DNA of 64,000 nt from Candidatus Sulfotelmatobacter sp. (GTDB lineage: Bacteria > Verrucomicrobiota > Verrucomicrobiia > Limisphaerales > UBA11358): the NCBI GenBank assembly GCA_035503455.1, contig DATJTK010000174.1, forward strand, positions 992 through 64,991. Direction: 5' to 3'. Numbering within the stretch: position 1 is the first letter of the stretch; every line of letters starts with the position of its first letter. The translations under genes and the position numbers were made by a program. The notes beneath the pieces are model-generated. The model was not told the origin of the DNA and did no database searches. It saw only the letters and a list, made by a program, of their open reading frames with translations. Positions 9,256 through 41,147 of the stretch are shown here, piece after piece.

Positions 9256-9355
9256 TTTCAGGGATTTAAACAATAAGGAACGCAGGAAATCGGGAAAGGA
9301 ACTTTTTTAGGCGCCAAAACATCGAACATCGAACATCGAATTATTGTTCCAACGT

Positions 9356-11868: not shown

Positions 11869-11997
11869 GTGCCAAGGGTGCTGAGGGATGAAGGATGAGT
11901 TATGAAGAATGAGTGGGAGATGGGAGATGGAAGATGGAAGATGGGAGGATGGGTCCCGTTTCGAGGACGAGGACGAGAGTGCCATGAGTGCCAATCG

Positions 11998-12037
11998 TTC
12001 GATGTTCGATGTTGGGCGTTCGATGTTCGATGTTTCC
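11998..12037 (+). repeat. catcgaa/ttcgatg heptamer repeat arm (ttcgatgttcgatgttgggcgttcgatgttcgatgtttcc)
   Basis: Same module as the right arm of the palindrome at 40128-40160. The opposite orientation occurs at 9317-9340. Confidence 0.7.
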
Positions 12038-27349: not shown

Positions 27350-28447
27350 ATGCCCAAGGAAACTCCAAACGACCTCCGCCAACCCGCCGAAACCCTCTAC
27401 GCCGAAGAACTCGACGCGTTGATTAAAGCCGAGAAGAATCCAGTGCCCGCCGGCTGGCGGATGTCGCCGCGCTCGGTGCTCACCTACATTTGCGGAGGCA
27501 AATGCGGCAAGCTCGATATCACGCCCAAATACATCGGCCATCAGCGCCTGGTGGAAATTGCGATCTCGACGCTCGTCACGGACCGCGCATTGCTGCTCAT
27601 CGGCGAACCGGGCACGGCCAAGTCGTGGCTCTCCGAACATCTCGCCGCCGCCATCAACGGCGATTCCACCAAAGTCGTGCAAGGCACGGCGGGCACGACT
27701 GAGGAACAAATTCGTTACACCTGGAATTACGCCATGCTCATCGCGCGCGGCCCGAGCAACGAGTCGCTCATCAAGAGCCCCATCTTCCGCGCCATGGAAT
27801 CGGGCAGCATCGCGCGCTTCGAGGAAGTCACCCGTTGCGCTTCGGAAGTGCAGGACGCATTGATTTCCATTCTATCCGAAAAACGGCTCTCCGTTCCCGA
27901 ACTGGCCACCGAAATCCCCGCTCAACGCGGATTCTCGGTGATCGCCACGGCCAACACGCGTGACCGCGGCGTCAACGACATGTCCGCCGCCTTGAAACGC
28001 CGCTACAATATCGTCGTGCTGCCCGCGCCGGCGGATTTGGAAACCGAAGTATCCATCGTCACCAAACGCGTGAAGGAACTCGCCGGCAATCTGCAATTGC
28101 GCGCCGAAATTCCGCATGAGGACGCCATCATCAAAATTGTGACCATCTTCCGTGAACTGCGCGCCGGCCAGACGCTCGACGGGAAGAACAAGGTCAAGAC
28201 ACCGTCGGGCGTTCTTTCAACCGCCGAAGCGATCTCATTGCTCGCCAACAGCATGGCGCTCTCCGGCAACTTCGGCGACGGCAATGTCAGCGATAACGAC
28301 CTCGCTTCCGGCCTGCAGGGCGCGGTCATCAAGGATGACGACAAGGACCTGATCGTCTGGAAAGATTATCTGGCCAACGTGATGAAGAAGCGCGGCGCAA
28401 CCTGGCGCGGGCTGTACTCGGCATGTACAGAACACGCGGGGGAATAG
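27350..28447 (+). CDS. MoxR-type AAA+ ATPase (AAA_5; YehL-like)
   Basis: Walker A LLLIGEPGTAKSWL, a Walker B-like IARFEEVTRC followed by VQDALISILSEKRLSV, and sensor ATANTRDRG. 365 aa. Confidence 0.88.
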   Translation: MPKETPNDLRQPAETLYAEELDALIKAEKNPVPAGWRMSPRSVLTYICGGKCGKLDITPKYIGHQRLVEIAISTLVTDRALLLIGEPGTAKSWLSEHLAAAINGDSTKVVQGTAGTTEEQIRYTWNYAMLIARGPSNESLIKSPIFRAMESGSIARFEEVTRCASEVQDALISILSEKRLSVPELATEIPAQRGFSVIATANTRDRGVNDMSAALKRRYNIVVLPAPADLETEVSIVTKRVKELAGNLQLRAEIPHEDAIIKIVTIFRELRAGQTLDGKNKVKTPSGVLSTAEAISLLANSMALSGNFGDGNVSDNDLASGLQGAVIKDDDKDLIVWKDYLANVMKKRGATWRGLYSACTEHAGE

Positions 28448-28459
28448 TATCCTCAATTG

Positions 28460-30829
28460 ATGAGTGCCGCGCCCCATATCTTTGGCGTCCGCCATCTTTC
28501 ACCGGCGGCAGCGTGGCATTTGCGGCAGTTGCTGGATCGCGTCCGCCCAAAGCTCGTGTTGATCGAAGGTTCGGACGACGCGGACGAATTGATTCATCAC
28601 ATCGTCAGCCCGCAATCGAAACTGCCGATTGCGATTCTTGCCTATACCGCCGACGCGCCGGTGCGGACGTTTGTTTATCCGCTGGCATCCTATAGCCCGG
28701 AATACCAGGCGCTCGTCTGGTGCCAGCAAAACAAAGCGAAGGCCCGTTTCATCGATTTGCCGTCGTCTGTTTTTCTCGGCCTGATGGACCGGGACGATGG
28801 GACGGCGCCGGTTGAAAAAGATAAACCTGAGGAAGCCGACGAAAAACAAAAAGGAAAGGATAAGCCTACGTTGGCCCAACTCGTTAAGGACGAGGACGAG
28901 GACGAGAAAGTTGTCGAACAAAAACCCAGGCGGGAATCTATTTATGACCGCCTCGCAGAACTGGCCGGCGAACCCGACTACGAAACCTATTGGGAACGTC
29001 ATTTCGAGCAGTTGCACGCCAATGACAGTTACCTGAACGCCGCGCGCAGTTACGGCGCGGAATTGCGAGAGATGGAGGATTTTTCCACGCGTCACGCTGC
29101 CGAAAACCTGGTGCGCGAGGCCTACATGCGACGGAAGATTCAACAAGCAATCGCCGAAGGCTTCAAACCGGAGCAAATCGTGGTAGTGACCGGCGCATTT
29201 CATGCCACTGCCCTTGGCGCCGATTTGCCGCCGATGACCGATGAGGAATTCGCCAAACTCCGCAAGCGCGCGTCCAAAATGACGCTGATGCCGTATTCAT
29301 TTTTCAAATTGTCGTCGCAATCCGGTTACGGCGCGGGGAACCATGCGCCCGCTTACTTCGAACTCGTATGGAATTCCTTCAACGAGAATACAGCGCCCGA
29401 GTTGCCCGAATTATTTCTCACGAGCGTCGCCCGCGAGTTGCGGTCATCCGGCACTTTTCGTTCAACTGCCGAGGTCATTGATGGCGTTCGCCTGGCCGAG
29501 ACGATGGCCGGGATGAAGAGTTCGCGTCCGACCTTGCGTGAACTCCAGGATGCCGCAGTAACGTTGCTCGGCCAGGGTGATCCGGCGGTCGTTCGCGAAT
29601 CATTGTTGCGCGTGGAAGTGGGCACTGCCATCGGCGCGCTGGCCAAGGGCGTCAGTCAAACTTCGATTCAGGACGATTTTTACCGTGAATTGAGCCGGCT
29701 GAAATTGGAGCAATTCAAGACGGGCGTGAAGCGCGATCTCGATCTCGACCTGCGGGAGAATCGCCGGGTCAAGAGCGCGGAAGCTGCGTTCCTCGATTTG
29801 CATCGCTCCAGTTTTCTGCATCGGCTTGCGGTGCTCGAAGTGCCATTCGCGCAAAAGCAGGCGGTGCGACAGGACGGAACAACCTGGGCCGAACGCTGGG
29901 CGCTGCAATGGACGCCGGAGGCCGAAATCGCGATTGTCGAAGCGGTGTTGCTGGGCGAGACGATCGAACTGGCGGTCGCCTTCAAGTTTAAGCAGCAGCT
30001 TGAGAAATGCACGGTGATTGCTGAAGCCGCCCAGGTCATTCGGCGCGCATGCGAATGCGGGATGAGCGGCTCAATTGAACTCGCGCGCCAGACCCTGCAA
30101 CGGCTCGCGAACGATTCTTCGGAATTCACAGCATTGGCCGGCGCGGCCGCTGAACTGGGTCTGGTGATTCGCTACGGCGACGTCCGCCAATTCGACGCCG
30201 AGCCGCTCAAACCGTTGCTCGAACAGTTGTTTCTCGAAGGCGCGCTCGGGCTCGTCGGCGCGTCGAACTGCGATCTTGCCGCCGCAAAGGCGATGCTCAT
30301 AGGCGTCAACGAAATGAACAAAGTCGCGCTGGATTACACGTCGTTGATTGACGAACCGCTCTGGATATCCGAACTCCAAAAGCTCGCCCAGGCCGACCAT
30401 TTGAATCCAATGCTGTCCGGTTACGCCTGCGCCCTGCTCGTCGAGCGTGGATTGATTTCGAACGAAGAACTGGCGAAGGAAGTTTCGCGCCGGCTGTCGC
30501 CGGGCATCGCCGCCGATTTGGGCGCAGGATGGTTTGAGGGCCTGGCGCAGCGAAATCGTTACGCGTTGCTGACGCGCCTCGCGCTCTGGGAACAACTCGA
30601 TAGTTACGTCGGCGCATTGACGGAGGAGGAATTCAAGCGCGCGCTCGTGTTTCTTCGCCGCGCGTTTGGCGATTTTTCGCCGCAGGAAAAACACAGCATC
30701 ACCGAAAACCTCGGCGAAATCTGGGGCGTGAACAAGGATGCGGCGAGCGAAGTGTTGAGCGCGGAACTGAACGAAGACGAAAAGAAAAAGCTCGATGAAC
30801 TGAGTGATTTCAATTTTGAGGAACTGTAA
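28460..30829 (+). CDS. DUF5682 family protein (YehM-like)
   Basis: About 789 aa. The N-terminus HIFGVRHLSPAAAWHLRQLLDRVRPKLVLIEGSDD fits the DUF5682 pattern as I remember it. There is an acidic insert (DEDEDE) and a long helical C-terminus. The track start at 28457 is TTG; ATG is at 28460. Confidence 0.72.
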   Translation: MSAAPHIFGVRHLSPAAAWHLRQLLDRVRPKLVLIEGSDDADELIHHIVSPQSKLPIAILAYTADAPVRTFVYPLASYSPEYQALVWCQQNKAKARFIDLPSSVFLGLMDRDDGTAPVEKDKPEEADEKQKGKDKPTLAQLVKDEDEDEKVVEQKPRRESIYDRLAELAGEPDYETYWERHFEQLHANDSYLNAARSYGAELREMEDFSTRHAAENLVREAYMRRKIQQAIAEGFKPEQIVVVTGAFHATALGADLPPMTDEEFAKLRKRASKMTLMPYSFFKLSSQSGYGAGNHAPAYFELVWNSFNENTAPELPELFLTSVARELRSSGTFRSTAEVIDGVRLAETMAGMKSSRPTLRELQDAAVTLLGQGDPAVVRESLLRVEVGTAIGALAKGVSQTSIQDDFYRELSRLKLEQFKTGVKRDLDLDLRENRRVKSAEAAFLDLHRSSFLHRLAVLEVPFAQKQAVRQDGTTWAERWALQWTPEAEIAIVEAVLLGETIELAVAFKFKQQLEKCTVIAEAAQVIRRACECGMSGSIELARQTLQRLANDSSEFTALAGAAAELGLVIRYGDVRQFDAEPLKPLLEQLFLEGALGLVGASNCDLAAAKAMLIGVNEMNKVALDYTSLIDEPLWISELQKLAQADHLNPMLSGYACALLVERGLISNEELAKEVSRRLSPGIAADLGAGWFEGLAQRNRYALLTRLALWEQLDSYVGALTEEEFKRALVFLRRAFGDFSPQEKHSITENLGEIWGVNKDAASEVLSAELNEDEKKKLDELSDFNFEEL

Positions 30830-32034
30830 TGCCAAACCCGGTGAACCAGGAACAATTGAAGCGCTGGCGGCTGATTCTCGGCCGGCACGCGCAGGATTCC
30901 CTTGCCCAGATGGGCGGCGGCGGACTCGAACTTTCGCCTGACCAAATTGGCATGGACGAAGCGCTCGCGGCCATTTACGACGAATCTTCCGGCGAAGCCG
31001 ACGGACAGCGTGGCCGGCAACGAAGCGCAGGCCTCGGCCCTTCCGCGCCAAATCTGGCAAAGTGGCTGGGGGACATCCGCAATTATTTCAAGGAAGACGT
31101 CGTCACCGTCATCCAAAACGACGCCATCGAGCGCAAAGGACTCACACAACTCCTATTTGAACCGGAATTGCTGAAGAATGTCGATCCGAATCCGCAACTC
31201 GTCGGCACGTTGATGTCGCTGAAAGGCCGCATCCCGGAACGGACGAAGGAAACGGCGCGCATGGTCGTGCGCGCGGTGGTCGAAAAGATCAAACGCCTGC
31301 TCGAACAACGCATCCGCCAGGCCGTGCTGGGCGCGCTCAATCGAAAAGAACATTCGCCCCTGCCCAACTCCGCGAACATCGACTGGAAATGGACCATTGG
31401 CCGCAACTTGAAAAATTACCAGCCGGCGCTTGGAACGATCGTGCCGGAGCGAGTTTACTTTTACTCGCGCGCCCAGCGCTCGAACAATTGGACCGTCATC
31501 GTCTGCATGGACCAAAGCGGTTCGATGGCCGAATCGGTCGTTTACGGCTCCGTGACCGGCTCGATTTTCGCCTCACTGCCCGCGCTCGACACTCGAGTGG
31601 TTGCGTTCGACACCAATATCGTGGACCTGACTGAACAATGCGGCAACGACCCGGTGGATATGATTTTCGGCGTCCAACTCGGCGGCGGGACGGACATCAA
31701 CAAAGCCATGGCATATTGCGAGCAATTCATCACCGACCCCGGCCAGACCATTTTTTTCCTTATCAGCGACCTTATCGAAGGCGGCAATCAGTCCCAACTC
31801 ATCCGCCGCATGCATGAAATGGCGGCCTCGGGCGTGCGTGTCATCACGCTGCTGGCTTTGTCAGACAGCGGCATCCCAATGTTTGACGAACAAGTCGCCA
31901 AAAAACTATCCGCCGGAGGAGTGCCCTGTTTCGGTTGCACTCCCAACAAACTCCCCGAACTCATTGAGGGCGTTCTCAAGAAGCATGATTTGAAAGCCCT
32001 GGCCGCGCGCCTGGCGACGAAGAAGGAGAAGTAA
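30829..32034 (+). CDS. VWA domain protein, CoxE-like (YehP-like)
   Basis: 401 aa with MIDAS VCMDQSGSM, then GGGTDINKAM and FLISDLIEGG. Its start overlaps the previous stop (TAATG). Confidence 0.85.
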   Translation: MPNPVNQEQLKRWRLILGRHAQDSLAQMGGGGLELSPDQIGMDEALAAIYDESSGEADGQRGRQRSAGLGPSAPNLAKWLGDIRNYFKEDVVTVIQNDAIERKGLTQLLFEPELLKNVDPNPQLVGTLMSLKGRIPERTKETARMVVRAVVEKIKRLLEQRIRQAVLGALNRKEHSPLPNSANIDWKWTIGRNLKNYQPALGTIVPERVYFYSRAQRSNNWTVIVCMDQSGSMAESVVYGSVTGSIFASLPALDTRVVAFDTNIVDLTEQCGNDPVDMIFGVQLGGGTDINKAMAYCEQFITDPGQTIFFLISDLIEGGNQSQLIRRMHEMAASGVRVITLLALSDSGIPMFDEQVAKKLSAGGVPCFGCTPNKLPELIEGVLKKHDLKALAARLATKKEK

Positions 32035-32433: not shown

Positions 32434-34095
32434 TTGACCGAAACAGAAAACAAGATTTTTGATATGGAAACCTCAACAAGTCCGGCGGTCAGGTCTCAAC
32501 CAGCCGCGAATCCATTTTTCGGCTGGCTCCATTCGATGTGCAAACGGATCATGGCGGGCAATCCATTCTATTTGGCGAGCGCCGGACTTCTCCTCTACGG
32601 CATCAACCAATTGACTACGGATTCCAAATTGGTTGGCGCGGAGTTTCCGATGTTGCGGTTCAATTTCTGCGCCCTGTTTCTGTACGAAATCATGCTGGTC
32701 GGCACCGCCATAATGCTGATTCGCCGCAGGATTTGGTATGACGCCCTGTTGTTATTTGGCCTGACCAATCTCTTTGTCATCGTGCCATTCAGCCTGATCA
32801 GTCGGGCAGTGTTTCTCAGTTCGCACCTCGCGCTGGCCATGAGCATTTGCGGCGCTGCGCTGGCGGTCGCCAAATTTTGGGCGTTCAAACGATATGCGCC
32901 CGAGCTTAATTTGCCACGAAGGCTTCTATTCTTCGGCGTGTTATTGCTGCTTGTGAACGCTTCGGCCCCGCTGCTTTTCAAAAGAATCGCACTGGACCTG
33001 GACCATGTTAGCAAGTGGCTTAACTTCATCTGGGAATTTCTCCTCCCGGCATTGGCTGGACTCGGAATATTCCTTCCGCGTCAGGCATGGCGGACCGGGA
33101 GGTCCGCCCTACCGTTTCGCGGTGGCACGCCGGGAGGAGAAAAATGGCTGCCCACTGCGATTTTCTCCGGCTGGACGATCGTTACCGCTTTTCACTTCGG
33201 CGGCATCGGATACTCGAACAGTTACGTTTGGAATTGGCCGCTGCTGGTGCCAATAGCTTGGGTGGTAACATGGACAGCCTATGTTCGAATCACGGATTTC
33301 ATCACCAGGCCAAACCGGCTCATTGAACAAATCGTGTTGTCCGTGCCTCTGTTGCCGCCTTTACTGGCCGTCCAATCGGAAGGGATATTAACGGTATTTG
33401 CGGGGTTAAATCTCGTTATTTACGGGTCACTGTTTATTCGCAAGGATCGAAATTTCCTGGCCCTGACCCGATTGCTTGGCGCCATTGCGATTCTTGCCGG
33501 CACTTTGCCAATGTCCTGGATTAGTCACATCGTGCCGAGCGTTGAGCGCCCGGAATGGGCCATGCTTTCGGTATTTGCGTGTTTCTTCTGGCTCATATTC
33601 TGGTCTCGCGATCCTCGCATAGCGTTGTTCGGCGCGTTGAGTCTAATCGGCCTCTGTTTTTGGTATGCCCCGGAATTCGGGCAGTACGCCTTCCAGGTGG
33701 CGCTGGTGTCATTGCTGGCCCACAGCCTGCGCTGGGAAGAGCAAGTACACAAGGGCGCGACGATACTTTGTTTTGTCGCGAGCATGCTATGGTCGTTGGT
33801 GTCGTGTTCGTGGTTATTTGACTCGGTCCACCCGGAGCGGCTTCTCGTTGACTCGGCTGCAGGGGTACTTCTAGCGGTCTATTTGCTGCACGCGACCATA
33901 TTTCGACGCTGGAAACGCTTGATCGTTCCGATTAGCGCAGCGTCTGTCCTGGCCTCGGAGCCAGCCATGATTGTGGGAAAGTGGCTTAACGGTGATACGC
34001 CTGGAATGCTCGCCGTCATCGGCAGTTTTATATTATTCGCGCTGGGCAGCATCGCTGCGTTCTCCAAACCAAAATGGTGGCCTCCCGGCCCGTAG
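32434..34095 (+). CDS. Polytopic integral membrane protein, hypothetical
   Basis: 553 aa with at least 12 hydrophobic helices and no motif I recognise. The start codon is non-ATG in the track. The stop codon lies inside the terminal repeat of the element at 34092. Confidence 0.6.
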   Translation: MTETENKIFDMETSTSPAVRSQPAANPFFGWLHSMCKRIMAGNPFYLASAGLLLYGINQLTTDSKLVGAEFPMLRFNFCALFLYEIMLVGTAIMLIRRRIWYDALLLFGLTNLFVIVPFSLISRAVFLSSHLALAMSICGAALAVAKFWAFKRYAPELNLPRRLLFFGVLLLLVNASAPLLFKRIALDLDHVSKWLNFIWEFLLPALAGLGIFLPRQAWRTGRSALPFRGGTPGGEKWLPTAIFSGWTIVTAFHFGGIGYSNSYVWNWPLLVPIAWVVTWTAYVRITDFITRPNRLIEQIVLSVPLLPPLLAVQSEGILTVFAGLNLVIYGSLFIRKDRNFLALTRLLGAIAILAGTLPMSWISHIVPSVERPEWAMLSVFACFFWLIFWSRDPRIALFGALSLIGLCFWYAPEFGQYAFQVALVSLLAHSLRWEEQVHKGATILCFVASMLWSLVSCSWLFDSVHPERLLVDSAAGVLLAVYLLHATIFRRWKRLIVPISAASVLASEPAMIVGKWLNGDTPGMLAVIGSFILFALGSIAAFSKPKWWPPGP

Positions 34096-34272
34096 CGCAG
34101 GTTTCCAAACCTGCCGTATCGCCGATTTCTAAATCGGCTAGCCGTCCGAACGCGGACCACCGCAAGCTCCCGGAACACCGTGGCGTGGGTTTCCAAATCG
34201 GCAGTCGAGCGACCACGAACGATCAGCAGGTTTGGAAACCTGCGATACAGCAGACTTGGAAGTCTGCGCTAC
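34092..34272. repeat. MITE/REP-like element with terminal inverted repeats GTAGCGCAG...CTGCGCTAC and internal GCAGGTTTCCAAACCTGC-type hairpins
   Basis: The ends read gtagcgcaggtttccaaacctgccgtatcgccgatttctaaatcggc... and ...cagcaggtttggaaacctgcgatacagcagacttggaagtctgcgctac. Related full copy at 40985-41147, half copy at 55995-56061. Confidence 0.65.
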
Positions 34273-34691
34273 GGTTCATGGCCCAGCTCTGCTTCAAGTT
34301 CGCTTACTCGATACTGTACGTTGTCACCGTAGCCCCACCCGATTCTTTGGGCACTAGAGCCCAATTTTTGAATGCGCTCCCGAAAGCGAGGATATGATTC
34401 GGGACATTCGCGCCAAAGGTGCTGAGCCATTTCGTTCAGCACGGACTCCAGACTGGTATAAAACGGCGCCTCTATATCGCCAAATTGTTTTGTAAACTCG
34501 GTGCCATTTTCCACATAGGTCAGCATTAAATCGATCGTGCCTTCCAAATTGCCAGTAGCTTTGCGGTAATCGCGAATGGCCTTGCGCGCTTCAGCGAGTT
34601 TGAGTTTTCCAAAGCCACGTGACGGGAAGAATTGCTCCACAATCTTGCGACGATATTTTTCCAGACCCGGTCCGGCCTTTTCATCGGCCAT
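34269..34691 (-). CDS. Hypothetical helical protein
   Basis: 140 aa. KLKLAEARKAIRDYRKATGNLEGTIDLMLTYVENGTEFTKQFGDIEAPFYTSLESVLNEM looks like a conserved helical family (possibly DUF6155-like, from memory, unverified). Confidence 0.5.
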   Translation of the reverse strand: MADEKAGPGLEKYRRKIVEQFFPSRGFGKLKLAEARKAIRDYRKATGNLEGTIDLMLTYVENGTEFTKQFGDIEAPFYTSLESVLNEMAQHLWRECPESYPRFRERIQKLGSSAQRIGWGYGDNVQYRVSELEAELGHEP

Positions 34692-34855: not shown

Positions 34856-35311
34856 TCATTTTAGAAAATCCGTCAGCGCCCGCCAGTGGCTTCCCGCGTC
34901 GAATGCTTCTCTATCGATCAACCGAAGCCGTCTGGTTAAATCTTCAAGGTCTTGTTTGGCGGAAGAAAAATATTCGTTCAACAGTCTAAAGCTTGTCGCA
35001 AACCGATCAACACTCGTGTTTAGAACGCTCAGCGGCTGTTCCAATTCCACGTCAATCCGTACAACGGAACCGCCTATCTCGTCGGCGCAAACGAACGCGC
35101 TGCCAGCATTCGGGAATTTCTCCTCACCAAATACTCGGTATCGGAGCCAGTCCGGTGGTAAAGGGGGCCCGCCGACAACAGGTTCTGTGGTCACTGGCCG
35201 CAAATGCCACATGAGTCTTGAGAAATTAAATGAAACCCATGTTTCCCGAAACTGCCACCTTGCCCGATTCGGCAGCGAATCGACCAATTGCTTTTGAAAT
35301 TCGGGATTCAC
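34856..35311 (-). CDS. Hypothetical protein, possibly SUKH/SMI1-KNR4-like immunity-type fold
   Basis: 151 aa. LPPDWLRYRVFGEEKFPNAGSAFVCADEIGGSVVRIDVE...LNEYF vaguely resembles SUKH family patterns. This is a weak call. Confidence 0.4.
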   Translation of the reverse strand: MNPEFQKQLVDSLPNRARWQFRETWVSFNFSRLMWHLRPVTTEPVVGGPPLPPDWLRYRVFGEEKFPNAGSAFVCADEIGGSVVRIDVELEQPLSVLNTSVDRFATSFRLLNEYFSSAKQDLEDLTRRLRLIDREAFDAGSHWRALTDFLK

Positions 35312-35395: not shown

Positions 35396-36724
35396 TCAAA
35401 CCTGGCCCGGCGTTTTCTCCTCGTAACCTTCATCCGTCTTTTGTTCGATGAGAAGCGCCATCGCATCGGCTGCGGCTTGCTCGTCTGCAAATGTTTTCGT
35501 CTTGGATTGGCCGGCTGAACCAATGCGTCCCCATCGCGTAGTCATGTTGTTGCCCGATTGTGAAACTTCCCAGAATTTGCTGGAGCTGCCTTCGACAAAC
35601 TCGAAGTAGCGGGGTTTGGAATCGCTGCCACCCGAAATCGAAACCGCCGGTGGCGCTTCGGGTTTCGTGGACACCGGCGATTGCACACTTTTAAGGGCGA
35701 CATCATGCCGCACGCCGACCCAACTTGGAAAACGCGGCACGCCCGCGTCAGAAAGCTCCTGGTAGCGAAAGGTCACGGTGGCGCCGATGCCCGGCGGATT
35801 CTCGCGTTCGCCGTCGCTGAAACCCGTGCCAATGGCGAAATCGGCGCCATCCGGCAGGCGCACCAACAACGCGCCCATTCGTCCCTTATGGCGTCCCGCG
35901 CCGGCCTGATGCCCAATGACAATGGCTTCCGCATCATGAAACGTTTTGACCTTCAGCAGCGTGGTTGAGCGGCCGGCAACATACTTCGATCCCGGTTGCC
36001 GGAGCATTAGCCCCTCGCCTCCGAGTGCCTCGACGCGCTTCAGTTCCGCGCGCAGGGCATCCAGGTTTTTGCATCGTTCGTGGACATGCTCCCGGGCGAA
36101 TTTTGCCACGGCCCTTGCAAGCGCATCCTTCAGAAAGGCAAGACGCTCCTCGAAACCGCCATTCGCCGCGGGCGCATCGAAGATGAGAAAGCGCACTTCC
36201 TTCCAAAGCTCGTTCTTGTCCTGGCGCCGGACGATGCTGACGGTGCGTTGAAACTTCTTGCGGTCAATCCAAAGTTCCCCATCAAGCGGCACCGCGGGCA
36301 GACCCTCAATGAACCAATCCGGCGCGTAATAGATGTGGCCCTGGCGCGAAAGAAATTGTTTGCCGTCCCAATAGGCGCGCACACCGTCGAGTTTTTCGCT
36401 CATCCACCAGCCGGACAAATCGGCGGCGTTGTCCCAACTCTCAGCCAGCAACAGCGGCGGGCCGGAATCAGCGTCCGCTTCACCGTCCGCAGTCTGCGCT
36501 GCGCGAACAGGACGTTGCGGCAATGCGCCACCGATGCGCGCTTCCTCCGCCGCATCTCCGCGCAGTTTGCGCAGGTGCTTGCAGGTCCTTTTCTCGATTC
36601 CGATGGATTGGTTGCGCCAGGCCGGGCAAGTGCATGAATAAACGCCACCGGTATTTTTTAAAACGTAAGGCTTCGCTCCCGAGCCCTGCATTTCCGTTGA
36701 TTCTCCGTCTTGTAGGTCGGGCAT
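35396..36724 (-). CDS. ATP-dependent DNA ligase (LigE/minimal type) with N-terminal SWIM zinc finger and C-terminal WGR domain
   Basis: 442 aa. SWIM motif YSCTCPAWRNQSIGIEKRTCKH (C31-x-C33-x14-C48-x-H50, nt about 36575-36634). Adenylation motif MSEKLDGVRAYW (K111, nt 36392-36394), then EGLMLRQ, LLKVKT and an OB region. The C-terminal WGR is YFEFVEGSSSKFWEVSQSGNNMTTRWGRIGSAGQSKTKTFADEQAAADAMALLIEQKTDEGYEE (nt about 35420-35632). Confidence 0.85.
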   Translation of the reverse strand: MPDLQDGESTEMQGSGAKPYVLKNTGGVYSCTCPAWRNQSIGIEKRTCKHLRKLRGDAAEEARIGGALPQRPVRAAQTADGEADADSGPPLLLAESWDNAADLSGWWMSEKLDGVRAYWDGKQFLSRQGHIYYAPDWFIEGLPAVPLDGELWIDRKKFQRTVSIVRRQDKNELWKEVRFLIFDAPAANGGFEERLAFLKDALARAVAKFAREHVHERCKNLDALRAELKRVEALGGEGLMLRQPGSKYVAGRSTTLLKVKTFHDAEAIVIGHQAGAGRHKGRMGALLVRLPDGADFAIGTGFSDGERENPPGIGATVTFRYQELSDAGVPRFPSWVGVRHDVALKSVQSPVSTKPEAPPAVSISGGSDSKPRYFEFVEGSSSKFWEVSQSGNNMTTRWGRIGSAGQSKTKTFADEQAAADAMALLIEQKTDEGYEEKTPGQV

Positions 36725-37098
36725 GGGTGATGGATATTTGAGGGTTGGCGGTTATCTGTGTTGCGTTGTCTTCCAAAAGTATTTGGACGATTTAACTTCT
36801 GTCAATGCCATCGTCCAAATTCATACCTTGAACTCTCCGGCACCGCCAAAGGCGCGCGCCACCATACCAGCCTGGGGCCTCGCCCCAGGATATCGAGCAT
36901 AGAGCACCCCAAGGGCTGAAGGCCCGTCTTATCAATTCGCACCCGGCGAACCAACGTTTGATTCCACGCGTCAAAATCCACAGGTTGATCCATGCTATAA
37001 ATCGCGCCGTTGGCGCTTATCCCATTTCGCCAGGAACATGGGGCGTTGCCCCATGCTGGTATAAAGTGGGCCTTTGGCCCATCATCCCGCCGCTCTAG

Positions 37099-38670
37099 CT
37101 ATTGCTCCGACTCCCTCTTCTTCACCGCTTTCTTCTTCGGTTTGGCCTCCGCACTTTCGGCTTCCGCTGGAACTGGAGCCGCAACCGCAACCGCCTTCGG
37201 TCCGCCGTACAGGTCGAAACCTTTGGTGATATTTTCTTCGATCAACTTTTTCGTCAGCGCCTCGGCCCGAGTCTCAGTGTGGGCGAACAGAGTTGTGACT
37301 TCGAGCGGCGTCTTGCGACCGGCGGAAAAATCCGTCCAAAAGATGACGTAGGGAAATGCCCCAGCCGTCGCGGGCCGCCGTCCGACCACCAGTTTGCGCA
37401 CGGCCAAAGCGCCTTTGACTTCCTTGCTATAAACCTCGCGGCGCACGACTTCGAGGACCGGCAGATTCCGATTGATCAATTCAGGCGCCGCAATCTCGCG
37501 GCCGGAAAGCTGGGCGATCCGCACGGCCTGCGGAGTGAAATCCTTGTCCGCGCGCAGGCGATGAAACGTCGGCAGCAACAACCTCGGACTCGCGGCGAGC
37601 CCGTCAAAACTCCAGCGCTGGTTATTCCAGCCAAAGACCTGCTGTCCGCTGGCTTCCTCGTCGGGCGGCAGAATGTCTTCCGCCTCCACTTCCACGACGA
37701 AACCGGGCTTCACGAAGCGCACGGGACGGCCATCGCTGTCGCTCATCGCCAGCGGCGCATCCACTCGCAGCGTGGACAACCGCCCCAGCCAGTCTACGCG
37801 GTCCTGGTCATTGAAACCCGAGCCGACGCGCGCGATCGATTGCAATTGCAGCCCGCGTTCGCTCGCCGGATAAGCCAAGGCCGTCAGAAGCGACATCATG
37901 CCGTAATTGCCTTCAAACTCGCCTTCCACAAAACCAACTACCGCCGCGTCCACGGTCCGGCGCGGTTTAAGTTTGCAGACTTCAGGCCGATCCAACCGGC
38001 GGATGACGAGACCTTCCAGCCCGCCGGAAGTCTTCTGATCAAACAGTTTCGGCAGGTCCGCGCCGCTCACCTCGCCACCTTCGGCGCGATGTACCAGCTT
38101 GTCCATATTGGTGCCGGCCAATTCGCCGATTAATTTCCAAATCGTGAGAAAATCAGATTGATGCACGCGCAGGTCGCGTCCGTCGTGCATAATTACATCG
38201 AGCACGGCCAGGCGGAAGCGGCCCGCATCGGCCGGGTCATTGGAATAACTGGCGCGCGTGACGTCAGCGCTCGCGCAACGGCGGCCATCCACAGTCTCGC
38301 GAAGATAAAGTTCGGCGCGCAATAGCGCTTTCTTCGTACCGTGCGCCTTGAGATTCGCCGCCAACTCCTTCAAACACGGCAGTCCGACACGAGCCCGACC
38401 CGATGGCGCATTGAATGTGAAGATGTCCGGACTGCGTCCCGCTTCAAAATATACGAACACACCTTCCCCATCGTATTTGGTGGTTTCGAGCACGCGACTG
38501 TCCGGGCCGTAACGCGCGGGCAGGTCCGCGGGTTTGATGGCAATGAAACGATTCGAGACTTCGACGTCGTATTGCTCGGCCACTTCCATGAGCACGCGGT
38601 CGGTCACGGCGGCGCGCGGCCCGAAGGCGTAGTCGCCGCTCTTTTTGGTCAATCTGGCCAGGTCAATCAT
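37099..38670 (-). CDS. ATP-dependent DNA ligase (nucleotidyltransferase + OB) with about 130-aa C-terminal extension and Lys-rich tail
   Basis: 523 aa with motif I ETTKYDGEG (K65, nt 38476-38478), LRAELY, EGLVIRR, CKLKPRR and motif VI-like PTFHRLRADKD. The tail is AEAKPKKKAVKKRESEQ. Its start overlaps the upstream stop (ATGA at 38667-38670). Confidence 0.8.
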   Translation of the reverse strand: MIDLARLTKKSGDYAFGPRAAVTDRVLMEVAEQYDVEVSNRFIAIKPADLPARYGPDSRVLETTKYDGEGVFVYFEAGRSPDIFTFNAPSGRARVGLPCLKELAANLKAHGTKKALLRAELYLRETVDGRRCASADVTRASYSNDPADAGRFRLAVLDVIMHDGRDLRVHQSDFLTIWKLIGELAGTNMDKLVHRAEGGEVSGADLPKLFDQKTSGGLEGLVIRRLDRPEVCKLKPRRTVDAAVVGFVEGEFEGNYGMMSLLTALAYPASERGLQLQSIARVGSGFNDQDRVDWLGRLSTLRVDAPLAMSDSDGRPVRFVKPGFVVEVEAEDILPPDEEASGQQVFGWNNQRWSFDGLAASPRLLLPTFHRLRADKDFTPQAVRIAQLSGREIAAPELINRNLPVLEVVRREVYSKEVKGALAVRKLVVGRRPATAGAFPYVIFWTDFSAGRKTPLEVTTLFAHTETRAEALTKKLIEENITKGFDLYGGPKAVAVAAPVPAEAESAEAKPKKKAVKKRESEQ

Positions 38671-39371
38671 GTTGCGGACGCCGGCGCTGCCGGCCGTTTG
38701 AGTTCCTGATCCGACAACAACAACAGCAGACGATAACGCGCATCGTCGCCCTTACCCTCCACTTCACCATAAAGAAATCCGCGAAACGGCGTGCCTCCGT
38801 CACGCAGCACCAGCGGCCCCGCGCCTTTCGGGCCGGCGCCCACGAGCGCCATGCTTTGGCTTTCCTGCAGCGACTTCGCCAGGCCATGAAGAAAATCAAA
38901 CGTCAAGCCGTCGGTATGGACAAGCTGTTGCATCCCGCGAAAGACAAATTTCGTCAGGCATTCCTTCACCGGCATGCGGCGAACGATTTTCAGCGGCTGC
39001 GTCGTGTCCACGTTCGCCGTGCGGAATACGCGGCTGCGCCGCTCCTTCTCCTGTCCGTCCGGCGCGTAAACCACCTCGACCTCCTTGAATTCAGTCGCGA
39101 TCGCCGGCTGCGCGCTGCGGGTATCGAGGTAAACCGCTGTTGCGTCGCGCATCAATCGACCCGCAAGCTGGAAATCCAACTCCGGATCGCCCTCAATCAA
39201 TTGCGCGGAATTCGCGGACGCCATGAAGTTTTGCCCATTCAACGCCTGCACGCGTTTGACTTTGCCTGCGCTGGTCACCTGCTCCAGCGGCGCGGCGTTC
39301 TTCTCAGCCATGGGCGAACTTAGGCCCACGCGCGCGCTACGGCCTTCGTTTTCGAGATGAAGCGTGAACAT
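38667..39371 (-). CDS. Hypothetical protein (orphan), second gene of the ligase operon
   Basis: 234-aa ORF, translationally coupled to the ligase gene, with no recognisable motif. Its composition looks like a real protein rather than an antisense artefact. Confidence 0.6.
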   Translation of the reverse strand: MFTLHLENEGRSARVGLSSPMAEKNAAPLEQVTSAGKVKRVQALNGQNFMASANSAQLIEGDPELDFQLAGRLMRDATAVYLDTRSAQPAIATEFKEVEVVYAPDGQEKERRSRVFRTANVDTTQPLKIVRRMPVKECLTKFVFRGMQQLVHTDGLTFDFLHGLAKSLQESQSMALVGAGPKGAGPLVLRDGGTPFRGFLYGEVEGKGDDARYRLLLLLSDQELKRPAAPASAT

Positions 39372-39386
39372 GTTTCCTCCGTTACG

Positions 39387-39962
39387 TTACATCATGCTGA
39401 AATCCAGCGGATCAGCCGCTTCCTCGGCGCCGCCCGCCGGGGCATCAAAAAATTGATACGCCACAGTGCGCCCGGCCATCGGGCAGGCTTTGAGCTGGCC
39501 CACGAGAAGAAACGCGCCATCATCGCGCACGAGCAGCAGGACATCGCGCGGGCGCGCCGACTTGCGATAATTGAAAGTTCCTCGATAGAGGCCAGGAGCA
39601 AGCCCGCCCGCGTCAACGGGATAAACATCCGTCGTCAGGAAACGCGCGAGCGTCTCCAGCGGCACGGCTTCGAGCGGTTCGCCGCCATCGAACGAACTTG
39701 GACGCAACTCAAGTTTCTGTCCGGCGCAATGAATCTCCGGCGTTTCCGCGGGCGAACCGTCATTGTCCACCGAAGTCATCGCCACCTGGCTTTTGCGAAG
39801 AGTCGCGCCATCGGGCAACAGCCAGCCGCGCTCAAGCCGCTGTCCGTTTTGCTCGACGACATGGTCCACGCGCCCGTAAAGGTCGTCCTTGCCAATTTTG
39901 GATTCGAGAGTGGCGGCGATTTCCTTGCCACCGACAGAAAGCTTTAATGATTTAGCAGCCAT
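39387..39962 (-). CDS. Hypothetical protein (orphan), first gene of the ligase operon
   Basis: 191-aa ORF lying 15 nt upstream of the next gene, with no recognisable motif and an acidic C-terminus (GGAEEAADPLDFSMM). Confidence 0.6.
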   Translation of the reverse strand: MAAKSLKLSVGGKEIAATLESKIGKDDLYGRVDHVVEQNGQRLERGWLLPDGATLRKSQVAMTSVDNDGSPAETPEIHCAGQKLELRPSSFDGGEPLEAVPLETLARFLTTDVYPVDAGGLAPGLYRGTFNYRKSARPRDVLLLVRDDGAFLLVGQLKACPMAGRTVAYQFFDAPAGGAEEAADPLDFSMM

Positions 39963-40050
39963 AGTGACTGACTCTGATTCAACTGTTTACGATCAACCCG
40001 GAACAATTAGCTTTGGATATCAGGTTTGGCGAAAATCCCGTTAAAGTCAA

Positions 40051-40160
40051 GACCCTCCAAAACATCAGACCCTCCAAAACATCGAACATCGAACATCGAA
40101 CGCTGAACATCGAATTCATTCTGCGCGTTCGATGTTGGGCGTTCGATGTTCGATGTTTCC
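40051..40160. repeat. Heptamer-repeat palindrome in the divergent promoter region
   Basis: gaccctccaaaacatc occurs twice (40051-40083). The left arm aaacatcgaacatcgaacatcgaacgctgaacatcgaa (40077-40114), a 13-nt loop, and the right arm ttcgatgttgggcgttcgatgttcgatgtttcc (40128-40160) form an imperfect inverted repeat of about 33 nt. Confidence 0.75.
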
Positions 40161-40984: not shown

Positions 40985-41147
40985 GTAGCGCAGGTTTCCA
41001 AACCTGCTGTATCGCGGGTTTCTAAACCCGCTGATCGTACGAAGTCGGACGCTCGTCCGATTTAAGAACGATCGAGGGACCGGGCAACGTCGCGCGGCCA
41101 GCCGATTTGGAAATCGGCGATACGGCAGGTTTGGAAACCTGCGCTAC
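40985..41147. repeat. MITE/REP-like element, full copy (same family as 34092-34272)
   Basis: The ends read gtagcgcaggtttccaaacctgctgtatcgcgggtttctaaacccgc... and ...gccgatttggaaatcggcgatacggcaggtttggaaacctgcgctac. It lies between convergent genes, and its right terminus supplies the GH57 stop codon. Confidence 0.7.

Follow-up and report, generated by a model that had tools for sequence, protein, structure and literature searches.

What can two ATP-dependent DNA ligases and two small proteins without a recognised family be doing side by side in a bacterial genome? The question is raised by positions 35,396-39,962 of a 64,000-nucleotide (nt) stretch of DNA from Candidatus Sulfotelmatobacter sp. 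(Verrucomicrobiota, Limisphaerales, UBA11358; assembly GCA_035503455.1, contig DATJTK010000174.1, positions 992 to 64,991), which is called the window below. Four minus-strand open reading frames (ORFs) of 191, 234, 523 and 442 amino acids (aa), here named A, B, C and D, lie there in this order, C and D being the ligases; the loci of relatives that were compared with it carry L-numbers. An initial annotation, made from the letters alone, had described the four ORFs and their sizes, a 15-nt gap between A and B, an ATGA overlap between B and C and a 374-nt spacer between C and D, and re-reading of the sequence confirmed all of this exactly. It had taken the genes for one operon that might serve nick or break repair, or defence or counter-defence. 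We found that A, B and C form a conserved unit, and we rate as about even the chance that this trio is a cryptic, minimal DNA break-repair module resembling NHEJ (non-homologous end joining).

A, B and C form a unit conserved across phyla

A word-indexed homolog search returned 269 relatives of A and 419 of B, the best 120 for each being 75-95% identical, and a profile search with B recovered 333 clusters at 50% identity, so that neither protein is the orphan for which it had been taken. All A and B homologs are named 'hypothetical protein' in the databases. The nearest relatives of the window locus were found in Verrucomicrobial (Limisphaerales-type) metagenome-assembled genomes. All 16 Verrucomicrobial loci that span A, B and C have them side by side in this order, and identity is as low as 45-48% in two of them. 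Beyond Verrucomicrobia, the trio was present in L020 (72% GC, after an ECF sigma/anti-sigma pair), in the Myxococcota locus L023, and in L024 (33% GC), L040 and L041, while in SAR11 (Candidatus Pelagibacter; L025, L038 and L039) the order was C-A-B, next to lpx genes. A profile search with distant A proteins gave matches that were almost all from SAR11. The order A-B-C or C-A-B recurred in at least 10 independent lineages, with L022, which has A-B only, as the exception. The trio order is thus repeated across phyla, but the four-gene order was found only in the closest relatives.

The gap between A and B measured 7-44 nt across loci, and B and C overlapped by ATGA. In the window, the 15-nt gap contains a GGAGGA ribosome-binding site as read from the letters, and the ATGA overlap is 4 nt long; A, B and C appear to be translationally coupled. 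When the window genes were compared with those of four relatives, the ratio of nonsynonymous to synonymous substitution rates (dN/dS) was 0.05-0.14 for each of A, B and C, and dN was nearly equal among the three. The low dN/dS and near-identical dN indicate that all three are translated, constrained and evolving in step, which speaks against the possibility that the small ORFs A and B are untranslated. The gene order, its conservation and the purifying selection are shown by these results, as are, further below, the catalytic motifs of C and the profile-level paralogy of A and B. We found no description of the trio in the literature searched. The suggestion of a dedicated nick or break repair system with two partner proteins is strengthened by the cross-phylum order, the purifying selection and the coupling, but the unit is A-B-C, and D is lineage-specific.

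We also observed a distant B homolog on a 50.8-kb contig (L018), where it is surrounded by densely packed small unknown ORFs. The trio members of this contig span 7356-8711 and 12297-13736. By alignment, the 205-aa gene upstream of B resembles A, but the Verrucomicrobial A hidden Markov model (HMM) missed it. An NT5C nucleotidase, an RNA ligase (PF09414), PTH2 and a radical SAM enzyme are encoded in the same stretch. A C-like ligase gene is found 3.5 kb downstream, and the contig is possibly phage or mobile-element DNA.

Ligase C and its conserved C-terminal domain

In C, Pfam found the OB domain (DNA_ligase_A_C, PF04679, 5e-9) and barely detected the adenylation domain. A C family profile built from 10 diverse members matched the solved archaeal and Lig1-type ligase cores (5.6e-20), the ligase domain of M. 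tuberculosis LigD (1.7e-11) and LigC (1.8e-10), and the best NCBIfam matches of C were LigD and NHEJ-ligase models, under their cutoffs. The motifs TTKYDGEG, EGLVIRR and CKLKPRR are present in the window as the initial annotation had quoted them, and so are those of D. Motifs I, III, IV, V and VI were invariant in 10 catalytically intact, diverse family members, in which the residues K65, D67, G68, E120, Y122, E219, G220, K233, K235, R373, D375 and K376 never vary. Judged by sequence, C has a genuine ATP-dependent DNA ligase core, though a divergent one.

Only about 60 residues precede motif I in C, so the usual N-terminal DNA-binding domain is lacking. Searches with Pfam and NCBIfam gave no fused AEP polymerase or 3'-phosphoesterase domain, and C consists only of a nucleotidyltransferase (NT) domain, the OB domain, a family-specific C-terminal domain and a tail. 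The C-terminal domain, of about 95 residues, follows the OB fold and is present in every lineage, including those in which the ligase has lost its catalytic residues; its consensus is VLRREVYxKE..AVRKLV..TNKE..YP.YV..TDYSP.RK.PL....IKKGW. An alignment of this domain to a small WGR alignment by hhalign gave P 0.0028, above 40 shuffles and mainly through the last helix, but six diverse members gave no WGR match in Pfam, and no match above chance level was found in the PDB. By eye and by hhalign the domain is possibly WGR-like, a likeness that Pfam and the PDB do not support. In this genome a lysine-rich tail follows the domain, and this tail is absent from C of the divergent relatives that were aligned.

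Resemblance of A to Ku and of B to A

No model of Pfam, NCBIfam (E<=0.1), PADLOC or PHROGs matched A or B, and profile searches of both against PDB sequences gave chance-level matches only. A search of 74 diverse B members against Pfam produced only scattered single chance matches. Aligned to each other by hhalign, the A and B families scored 40.2 (P 2.2e-5) over 164 co-linear columns, with a maximum of 30.1 in 40 shuffles, and at the profile level they look like distant paralogs.

AlphaFold2 (AF2) models of A and B were built from shallow alignments (75-95% identity) and compared with solved structures by Foldseek. The results showed that the top 50 PDB matches of the A model were all Ku, the best being the B. 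subtilis Ku core (9vnq, E 1.1e-3, probability 0.99) and others including M. tuberculosis Ku and many human Ku80 chains. In the viral library BFVD, the sole match of the A model at E<0.1 was Ku of Mycobacterium phage Dylan. The B model gave only noise; since it is equally poor, low confidence alone does not create Ku matches. Structure prediction followed by Foldseek, which the initial annotation had proposed, thus connected A to Ku through a low-confidence model but yielded noise for B.

For profile comparison, a Ku alignment was built from 12 annotated plasmid Ku proteins. The A family scored 22.4 against it in hhalign (P 0.026 local, 0.0024 global), with a maximum of 18.3 in 40 shuffles and 10.6 for reversed Ku, and the merged A and B families scored 23.6 (P 0.014 local, 0.0016 global), with a maximum of 18.9 in 60 shuffles. 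The alignment of A with Ku is co-linear from residue 1 of both proteins. Its register was constant in the three comparisons with Ku that contain A: GYE..g.yV..eEl of Ku stands against GY.D..G.wV....L of A, and YYL.P against SVY.L.P. At E<10, a locally built Ku HMM weakly picked up 101 members of the A family and 6 of the B family, but not one of 555 reversed decoys.

These comparisons suggest, with moderate confidence, that A has a Ku-like core or fold; B would be Ku-like indirectly, via A only. Ku is therefore probably not absent from the locus. The statement in the initial annotation that Ku, LigD-domain and Lhr partners are missing is right in that standard HMMs match none of them, but its Ku part is probably wrong, given the fold and profile resemblance of A and, through A, of B.

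The C-terminus of A is in all cases an acidic stretch with a conserved tip, which is DPLDFSMM in the window and reads LDFEML, LDFEMM, LDFAMF, LSFEMM, FDFEML or MDFGML elsewhere. Some B-family members (P0260, P0261, P0269, P0275 and P0278) carry C-terminal extensions of 100-350 residues, which are histone-H1-like PAAKK/KAAK repeats (HC2, 7.7e-16) or a SAM domain (1.4e-13). A lysine-rich extended C-terminus is also known from mycobacterial Ku.

A proposed end-joining module and the points against it

If the trio is an NHEJ-like module, A and B, sharing a very divergent Ku-like core, would most likely come together as a heterodimeric, DNA-end-binding ring. Such a ring would resemble Ku70/Ku80, or the pair encoded by the tandem Ku genes that stand before a ligase-only ligD on rhizobial plasmids. 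C would be the catalytically complete ligase that A and B place at the break; lacking an N-terminal DNA-binding domain, it would depend on them for this. The most likely contact between A and C would be made by the acidic LDFxMM tip of A and the conserved C-terminal domain of C, and non-specific affinity for DNA would be contributed by the lysine-rich tails, which C has in this genome and B in other lineages. A preprint reports recruitment of LigD by the Ku C-terminus (bioRxiv 10.64898/2025.12.12.693941), and A has a conserved C-terminal tip. The heterodimer, the end binding, the tail-mediated recruitment and the biological substrate are all features that we infer.

Because a polymerase or phosphoesterase module is missing from the window, sealing would be limited here to nicks and to ends that can be ligated directly. 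At L040:2914-8531 the trio stands in a five-gene cluster, between genes for an AEP primase-polymerase (PF22548, 6.9e-7) and an ExoIII-like nuclease (PF03372, 2e-13; xth, 9e-14); its B carries a fused SAM domain and its ligase is of the C type. The AEP and the nuclease, found as separate genes in L040 only, correspond in split form to activities that are united as domains in LigD, those of a polymerase and of end cleaning.

Several results weigh against this proposal. The Ku family model PF02735 matched neither A nor B, and the locally built Ku HMM gave no individually significant match to either, the best E-value being 0.35. The AF2 models are poor: that of A has a predicted local distance difference test (pLDDT) score of 49.5, with only residues 96-159 above 70, that of B a pLDDT of 41, and the Foldseek TM-scores of the A model against Ku are only about 0.3. 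The non-Verrucomicrobial subset of A scored 18.1 against Ku in hhalign (P 0.11), inside the shuffle distribution, so that the shuffles were exceeded in two of three set-ups and the signal is marginal and alignment-dependent. B against Ku scored 16.1 (P 0.22), which is not significant, and reversed Ku scored 17.7. The neighbours of the trio in L040 fit LigC-type excision repair equally well as end joining. On the Hyphomicrobiaceae contig of L022, A-B occurs without a neighbouring ligase. The C homologs at L020:7465-8922 and L023:7693-9078 are pseudo-ligases, in which motif I reads LVAG and WTPG instead of KxDG, without its lysine, and the key residues in motifs III to VI are gone as well; they retain the fold and the conserved C-terminal domain and are still paired with A and B. 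With C dead in these two loci, A and B must have a role independent of its catalysis, and, as judged from these sequences, ligation by C is not universally required for what A and B do.

The wider form of the proposal, that A-B-C is a previously unrecognised and phylogenetically wide end-joining pathway in which a heterodimeric Ku-like ring, too divergent for any standard model to find, works with a ligase that has no DNA-binding domain and docks via a new C-terminal domain, we put forward tentatively, at slightly short of an even chance. To our knowledge, surveys of bacterial NHEJ find Ku by sequence models and conclude that most bacteria are without the pathway, and lineages such as Limisphaerales, Myxococcota and the genome-streamlined SAR11 clade are, as far as we know, scored as lacking NHEJ with canonical Ku models. 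If A and B are a cryptic Ku-like heterodimer, NHEJ is under-counted in such surveys, and among the groups overlooked would be the abundant Verrucomicrobia of soils and SAR11 of the sea. How eukaryotic Ku70/Ku80 originated is a question on which a heterodimeric Ku in bacteria would bear as well. The trio would then be a compact three-protein end-joining kit, whose natural pseudo-ligase variants separate a scaffold role from catalysis, and the catalytically dead ligase paralogs of some lineages would mean that there is a second role besides catalysis, for instance as a scaffold or a sensor of breaks. Even without the Ku link, A and B are a strongly conserved, uncharacterised ligase partner pair with no Pfam family and no solved structure.

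Ligase D and the spacer between C and D

The core of D is LigE-type (NF006592, 337.8 bits against a cutoff of 200; OB_2, PF14743, 3.2e-26), its best match among solved structures is 4d05 (5.4e-63), and its C-terminus is a WGR domain (PF05406, 9.6e-19, residues 372-439). The motifs SEKLDGVR, EGLMLRQ and LLKVKT are present in the window. The N-terminus, MPDLQDGESTEMQGSGAKPY, is hydrophilic and is followed by a SWIM-like CxC..CxH finger, recognised by reading the sequence; by the same reading, a periplasmic signal sequence of the Lig E type is absent. With a hydrophilic N-terminus in place of that signal sequence, D is presumably cytoplasmic. Williamson and Leiros 2020 (PMC7470946) had already pointed to bacterial NT-OB_2-WGR ligases as a cluster that is large and unstudied, so D belongs to a known class. 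Ligases of this type are self-sufficient and widespread without A or B (PMC7470946).

D adjoins C in 5 of the 14 Verrucomicrobial loci that extend past C (L005, L006, L011, L014 and L017, the five closest) and was absent beside the trio in the 9 others and in all other phyla examined. The gap between C and D is 56 nt in L006, 12 nt in L011 and 49 nt in L014, and such short gaps make co-transcription likely there; the window and L005 have longer gaps, of 374 and 801 nt. In the window, the C stop codon is followed at once by hairpins. The spacer further holds long-range inverted repeats, in which 36864-36887 pairs with 37039-37062 and 36913-36932 with 37061-37080, and, 54 nt before D, a promoter-like site (36778-36805, minus strand). 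Because of the 374-nt spacer, D is probably not co-transcribed with C in the window, and with the hairpins, the promoter-like site and the limited adjacency the four-gene operon of the initial annotation is not confirmed. Its 'repeat spacer' is apt for the internal inverted repeats, but no second copy was found within the window and the spacer is not a member of a repeat family; only 61 nt upstream of D are shared with L005. The best reading is that D is a separate, autonomous ligase that joined the trio neighbourhood in one Limisphaerales subclade.

Two side observations concern this region. At 37037-37081 (plus strand), within the spacer, there is a sub-threshold Rfam match to the Acido-Lenti-1 small RNA (24.3 bits against a gathering threshold of 37, E 0.025), which spans the full model length, lies on the strand opposite to the ligase genes and coincides with the GC-rich hairpins after the C stop codon. 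Two SAR11 loci encode a separate WGR-domain protein of 69 aa at a distance of 2-5 kb from C-A-B (L025:247-456 and L038:2687-2896), which recalls the WGR domain fused to D beside the window trio.

Other explanations of the locus

Four other explanations were weighed. That A and B are non-Ku accessory factors of the ligase, such as scaffolds or lesion sensors, serving nick or gap repair or a stationary-phase excision pathway like that of LigC-PrimPolC, we consider unlikely. The failure of Ku HMMs to find A and B, the low-confidence model on which the structural evidence rests and the minimal, LigC-like NT-OB core of C would all suit it, as would L040, in which the ExoIII-like apurinic/apyrimidinic (AP) endonuclease and the AEP are the reported partners of mycobacterial LigC in base excision repair (PMC5663958; PMC7470946). 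Against such accessory factors, Foldseek with the A model gives Ku alone in two libraries, the co-linear Ku profile alignments beat shuffled controls, the two-paralog arrangement suits a ring dimer and the lysine-rich tails parallel those of Ku. A single system of all four genes, with the two ligases cooperating, seems improbable to us: 9 other Verrucomicrobial loci have no D beside the trio, nor has any locus of the other phyla, C and D of the window are parted by 374 nt with hairpins and a promoter-like site, and D is of a self-sufficient type that is widespread without A or B (PMC7470946), although C-D adjacency is kept in five related loci, D follows C by 56, 12 and 49 nt in three of them, and two SAR11 loci, with their small WGR protein a few kilobases away from the trio, hint that an association with WGR may recur.

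Anti-phage defence, counter-defence or a mobile-element module that protects or seals DNA ends, part of which the initial annotation had entertained, is in our judgement quite improbable for the trio. One might cite for it the L018 contig, where a distant B homolog lies with small unknown ORFs, an RNA ligase, PTH2, a radical SAM enzyme and a C-like ligase, the best match of the L040 AEP to a Pfam model named after the TOTE conflict system, and flanking genes that vary between lineages. However, PADLOC-DB v2 matched none of A, B, C and D, its sole match being a chance-level ZorA hit (E 0.009) to an unrelated 140-aa ORF; no relatives were found in pattern scans of IMG/VR or by tblastn in INPHARED phages and PLSDB plasmids; the neighbours are housekeeping genes (GT2, GH57 and a XerC/D-like recombinase here, lpx genes in SAR11); and the trio is under strong, uniform purifying selection and occurs in every Limisphaerales locus fetched. 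The defence role was thus not borne out. We regard it as very improbable that A and B are nucleoid-associated, chromatin-like DNA-binding proteins with a mainly structural ligase-like partner. The histone-H1-like tails of B relatives, the A-B pair without ligase in L022 and the ligase partner of two lineages that has no catalytic residues and keeps its C-terminal domain could be read in that way, but in the window and in most lineages C keeps all catalytic motifs under purifying selection, and the Ku-like signal points to end binding and not to general nucleoid proteins.

Surroundings of the locus

The features of the locus are collected in Table 1.

Table 1. Genes, domains and intergenic features of the A-D locus, in window positions
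Feature	Position	Strand	Basis
Gene A, putative small Ku-like subunit	39387-39962	-	191-aa ORF; homologs, dN/dS, Foldseek, hhalign
A acidic C-terminal tail ending DPLDFSMM, putative docking peptide	39390-39437	-	tip conserved across phyla
Gene B, putative large Ku-like subunit, distant paralog of A	38667-39371	-	234-aa ORF; homologs, hhalign
Gene C, ATP-dependent DNA ligase without N-terminal DNA-binding domain	37099-38670	-	523 aa; Pfam, motifs
C nucleotidyltransferase domain, residues ~60-236	37963-38493	-	motif I K65-Y-D-G, III E120, IV E219-G220, V K233-x-K235
C OB domain, residues ~237-378	37537-37962	-	motif VI R373-x-D375-K376; PF04679 5e-9
C conserved C-terminal domain, residues ~398-492, candidate A/B docking site	37195-37479	-	conserved in all lineages
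C low-complexity Ala/Pro/Lys tail ending KPKKKAVKKRESEQ	37102-37194	-	sequence reading
C-D spacer, 374 nt	36725-37098	.	hairpins, inverted repeats, promoter-like site
Gene D, neighbour outside the conserved trio	35396-36724	-	442 aa; NCBIfam, Pfam
D SWIM-like finger	36572-36637	-	CxC..CxH pattern; Pfam E-value 0.7
D LigE-type NT-OB_2 core	35702-36487	-	NF006592, PF14743
D WGR	35408-35611	-	PF05406

The locus is flanked on one side by a GT2 glycosyltransferase, a GH57 branching enzyme and a XerC/D-type recombinase, and on the other by a SUKH-4 protein, a membrane protein and a MoxR-DUF5682-VWA operon; the genes surrounding A-D are ordinary chromosomal or housekeeping genes. Downstream of D lie a 151-aa SUKH-4 immunity-family protein (34856-35311, minus strand; Pfam 1.2e-6) and a 140-aa ORF without a family match (34269-34691, minus strand), neither of which was found in any related locus (tblastn, 1e-5). 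At 27350-32034 (plus strand) a HEAT-repeat protein is followed by the operon of a MoxR-type AAA_5 ATPase, DUF5682 (5.7e-149) and VWA_CoxE. The initial annotation had thought of linking this MoxR/VWA operon with the ligase genes; the link to the trio was rejected, the synteny being limited to the two nearest relatives, L005 and L006.

Among the upstream regions of A from 13 loci, a TTGACT-type hexamer was the sole common element, and among the closest relatives only. No LexA box (palindrome TGTTC-N4-GAACA) was found upstream of A near the operon, a negative of little weight, and two chance-level matches lay elsewhere. The divergent intergenic region between A and the GT2 gene (40050-40157) has a perfect 17-nt tandem duplication (AGACCCTCCAAAACATC twice) and two inverted arrays of the heptamer AACATCG/GTTCGAT, with 30-nt arms that are 93% complementary. 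These heptamer arrays recur at 9318-9340 and 11997-12034, and with these further copies they look like a genome-wide intergenic repeat. Clustered palindromic units of 24-28 nt (CGCAGGTTTCCAAACCTGC-like), resembling repetitive extragenic palindromic (REP) elements, are found in intergenic DNA on both sides of the locus, at 34090-34274 and 40985-41037.

Comparison with known systems

Phage Mu Gam is a Ku-like end binder of about 174 aa, and as a small Ku-related protein it is near A in size. Unlike the proposed A/B ring, Gam acts alone as a homodimer, protects ends from nucleases and has no ligase pairing, and a Pfam Gam match to A or B is absent. D alone is comparable with Lig E and the NT-OB_2-WGR ligases: it has the LigE-type core and the C-terminal WGR domain of the cluster in PMC7470946, whereas in place of the periplasmic signal sequence of Lig E it has a hydrophilic N-terminus with a SWIM-like CxC..CxH finger.

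The mycobacterial LigC-PrimPolC system shares with the trio a minimal NT-OB ligase, to which L040 adds an AEP and an ExoIII-like nuclease. In contrast, LigC systems are without A/B-like partners, C has an extra conserved C-terminal domain, and the window is without AEP or nuclease. Eukaryotic Ku70/Ku80 with DNA ligase IV offers a heterodimer of two diverged paralogs, as A and B would be, and the acidic C-terminal tip of A has a hydrophobic end. The Ku80 tip, which ends in DDLLDMI and recruits DNA-PKcs, shows a similar acidic-hydrophobic pattern. A and B are much smaller than Ku70/Ku80, have neither vWA nor SAP domains and no XRCC4-like partner, and the similarity of the tails may be convergent.

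The rhizobial plasmid operons with two Ku genes and a ligase-only ligD are, by their annotated features, arranged like the trio, with two paralogous genes and then a ligase-only gene. Their Ku proteins are canonical and recognisable by sequence, whereas A and B are not, and A and B are far more diverged from each other. In bacterial NHEJ, as in M. tuberculosis and B. subtilis, a Ku homodimer works with LigD, whereas A and B are two different subunits without a PF02735 match, A has only 191 aa, and C is without fused polymerase and phosphoesterase domains and has a family-specific C-terminal domain. The trio is like bacterial NHEJ in that the gene of a putative end-binding factor adjoins that of an ATP-dependent ligase, in the resemblance of the low-confidence A model to the Ku fold, in LigD and NHEJ-ligase models being the nearest to C in NCBIfam, and in a C-terminal tail on the putative Ku-like protein that is a likely ligase recruiter, with lysine-rich tails in some lineages.

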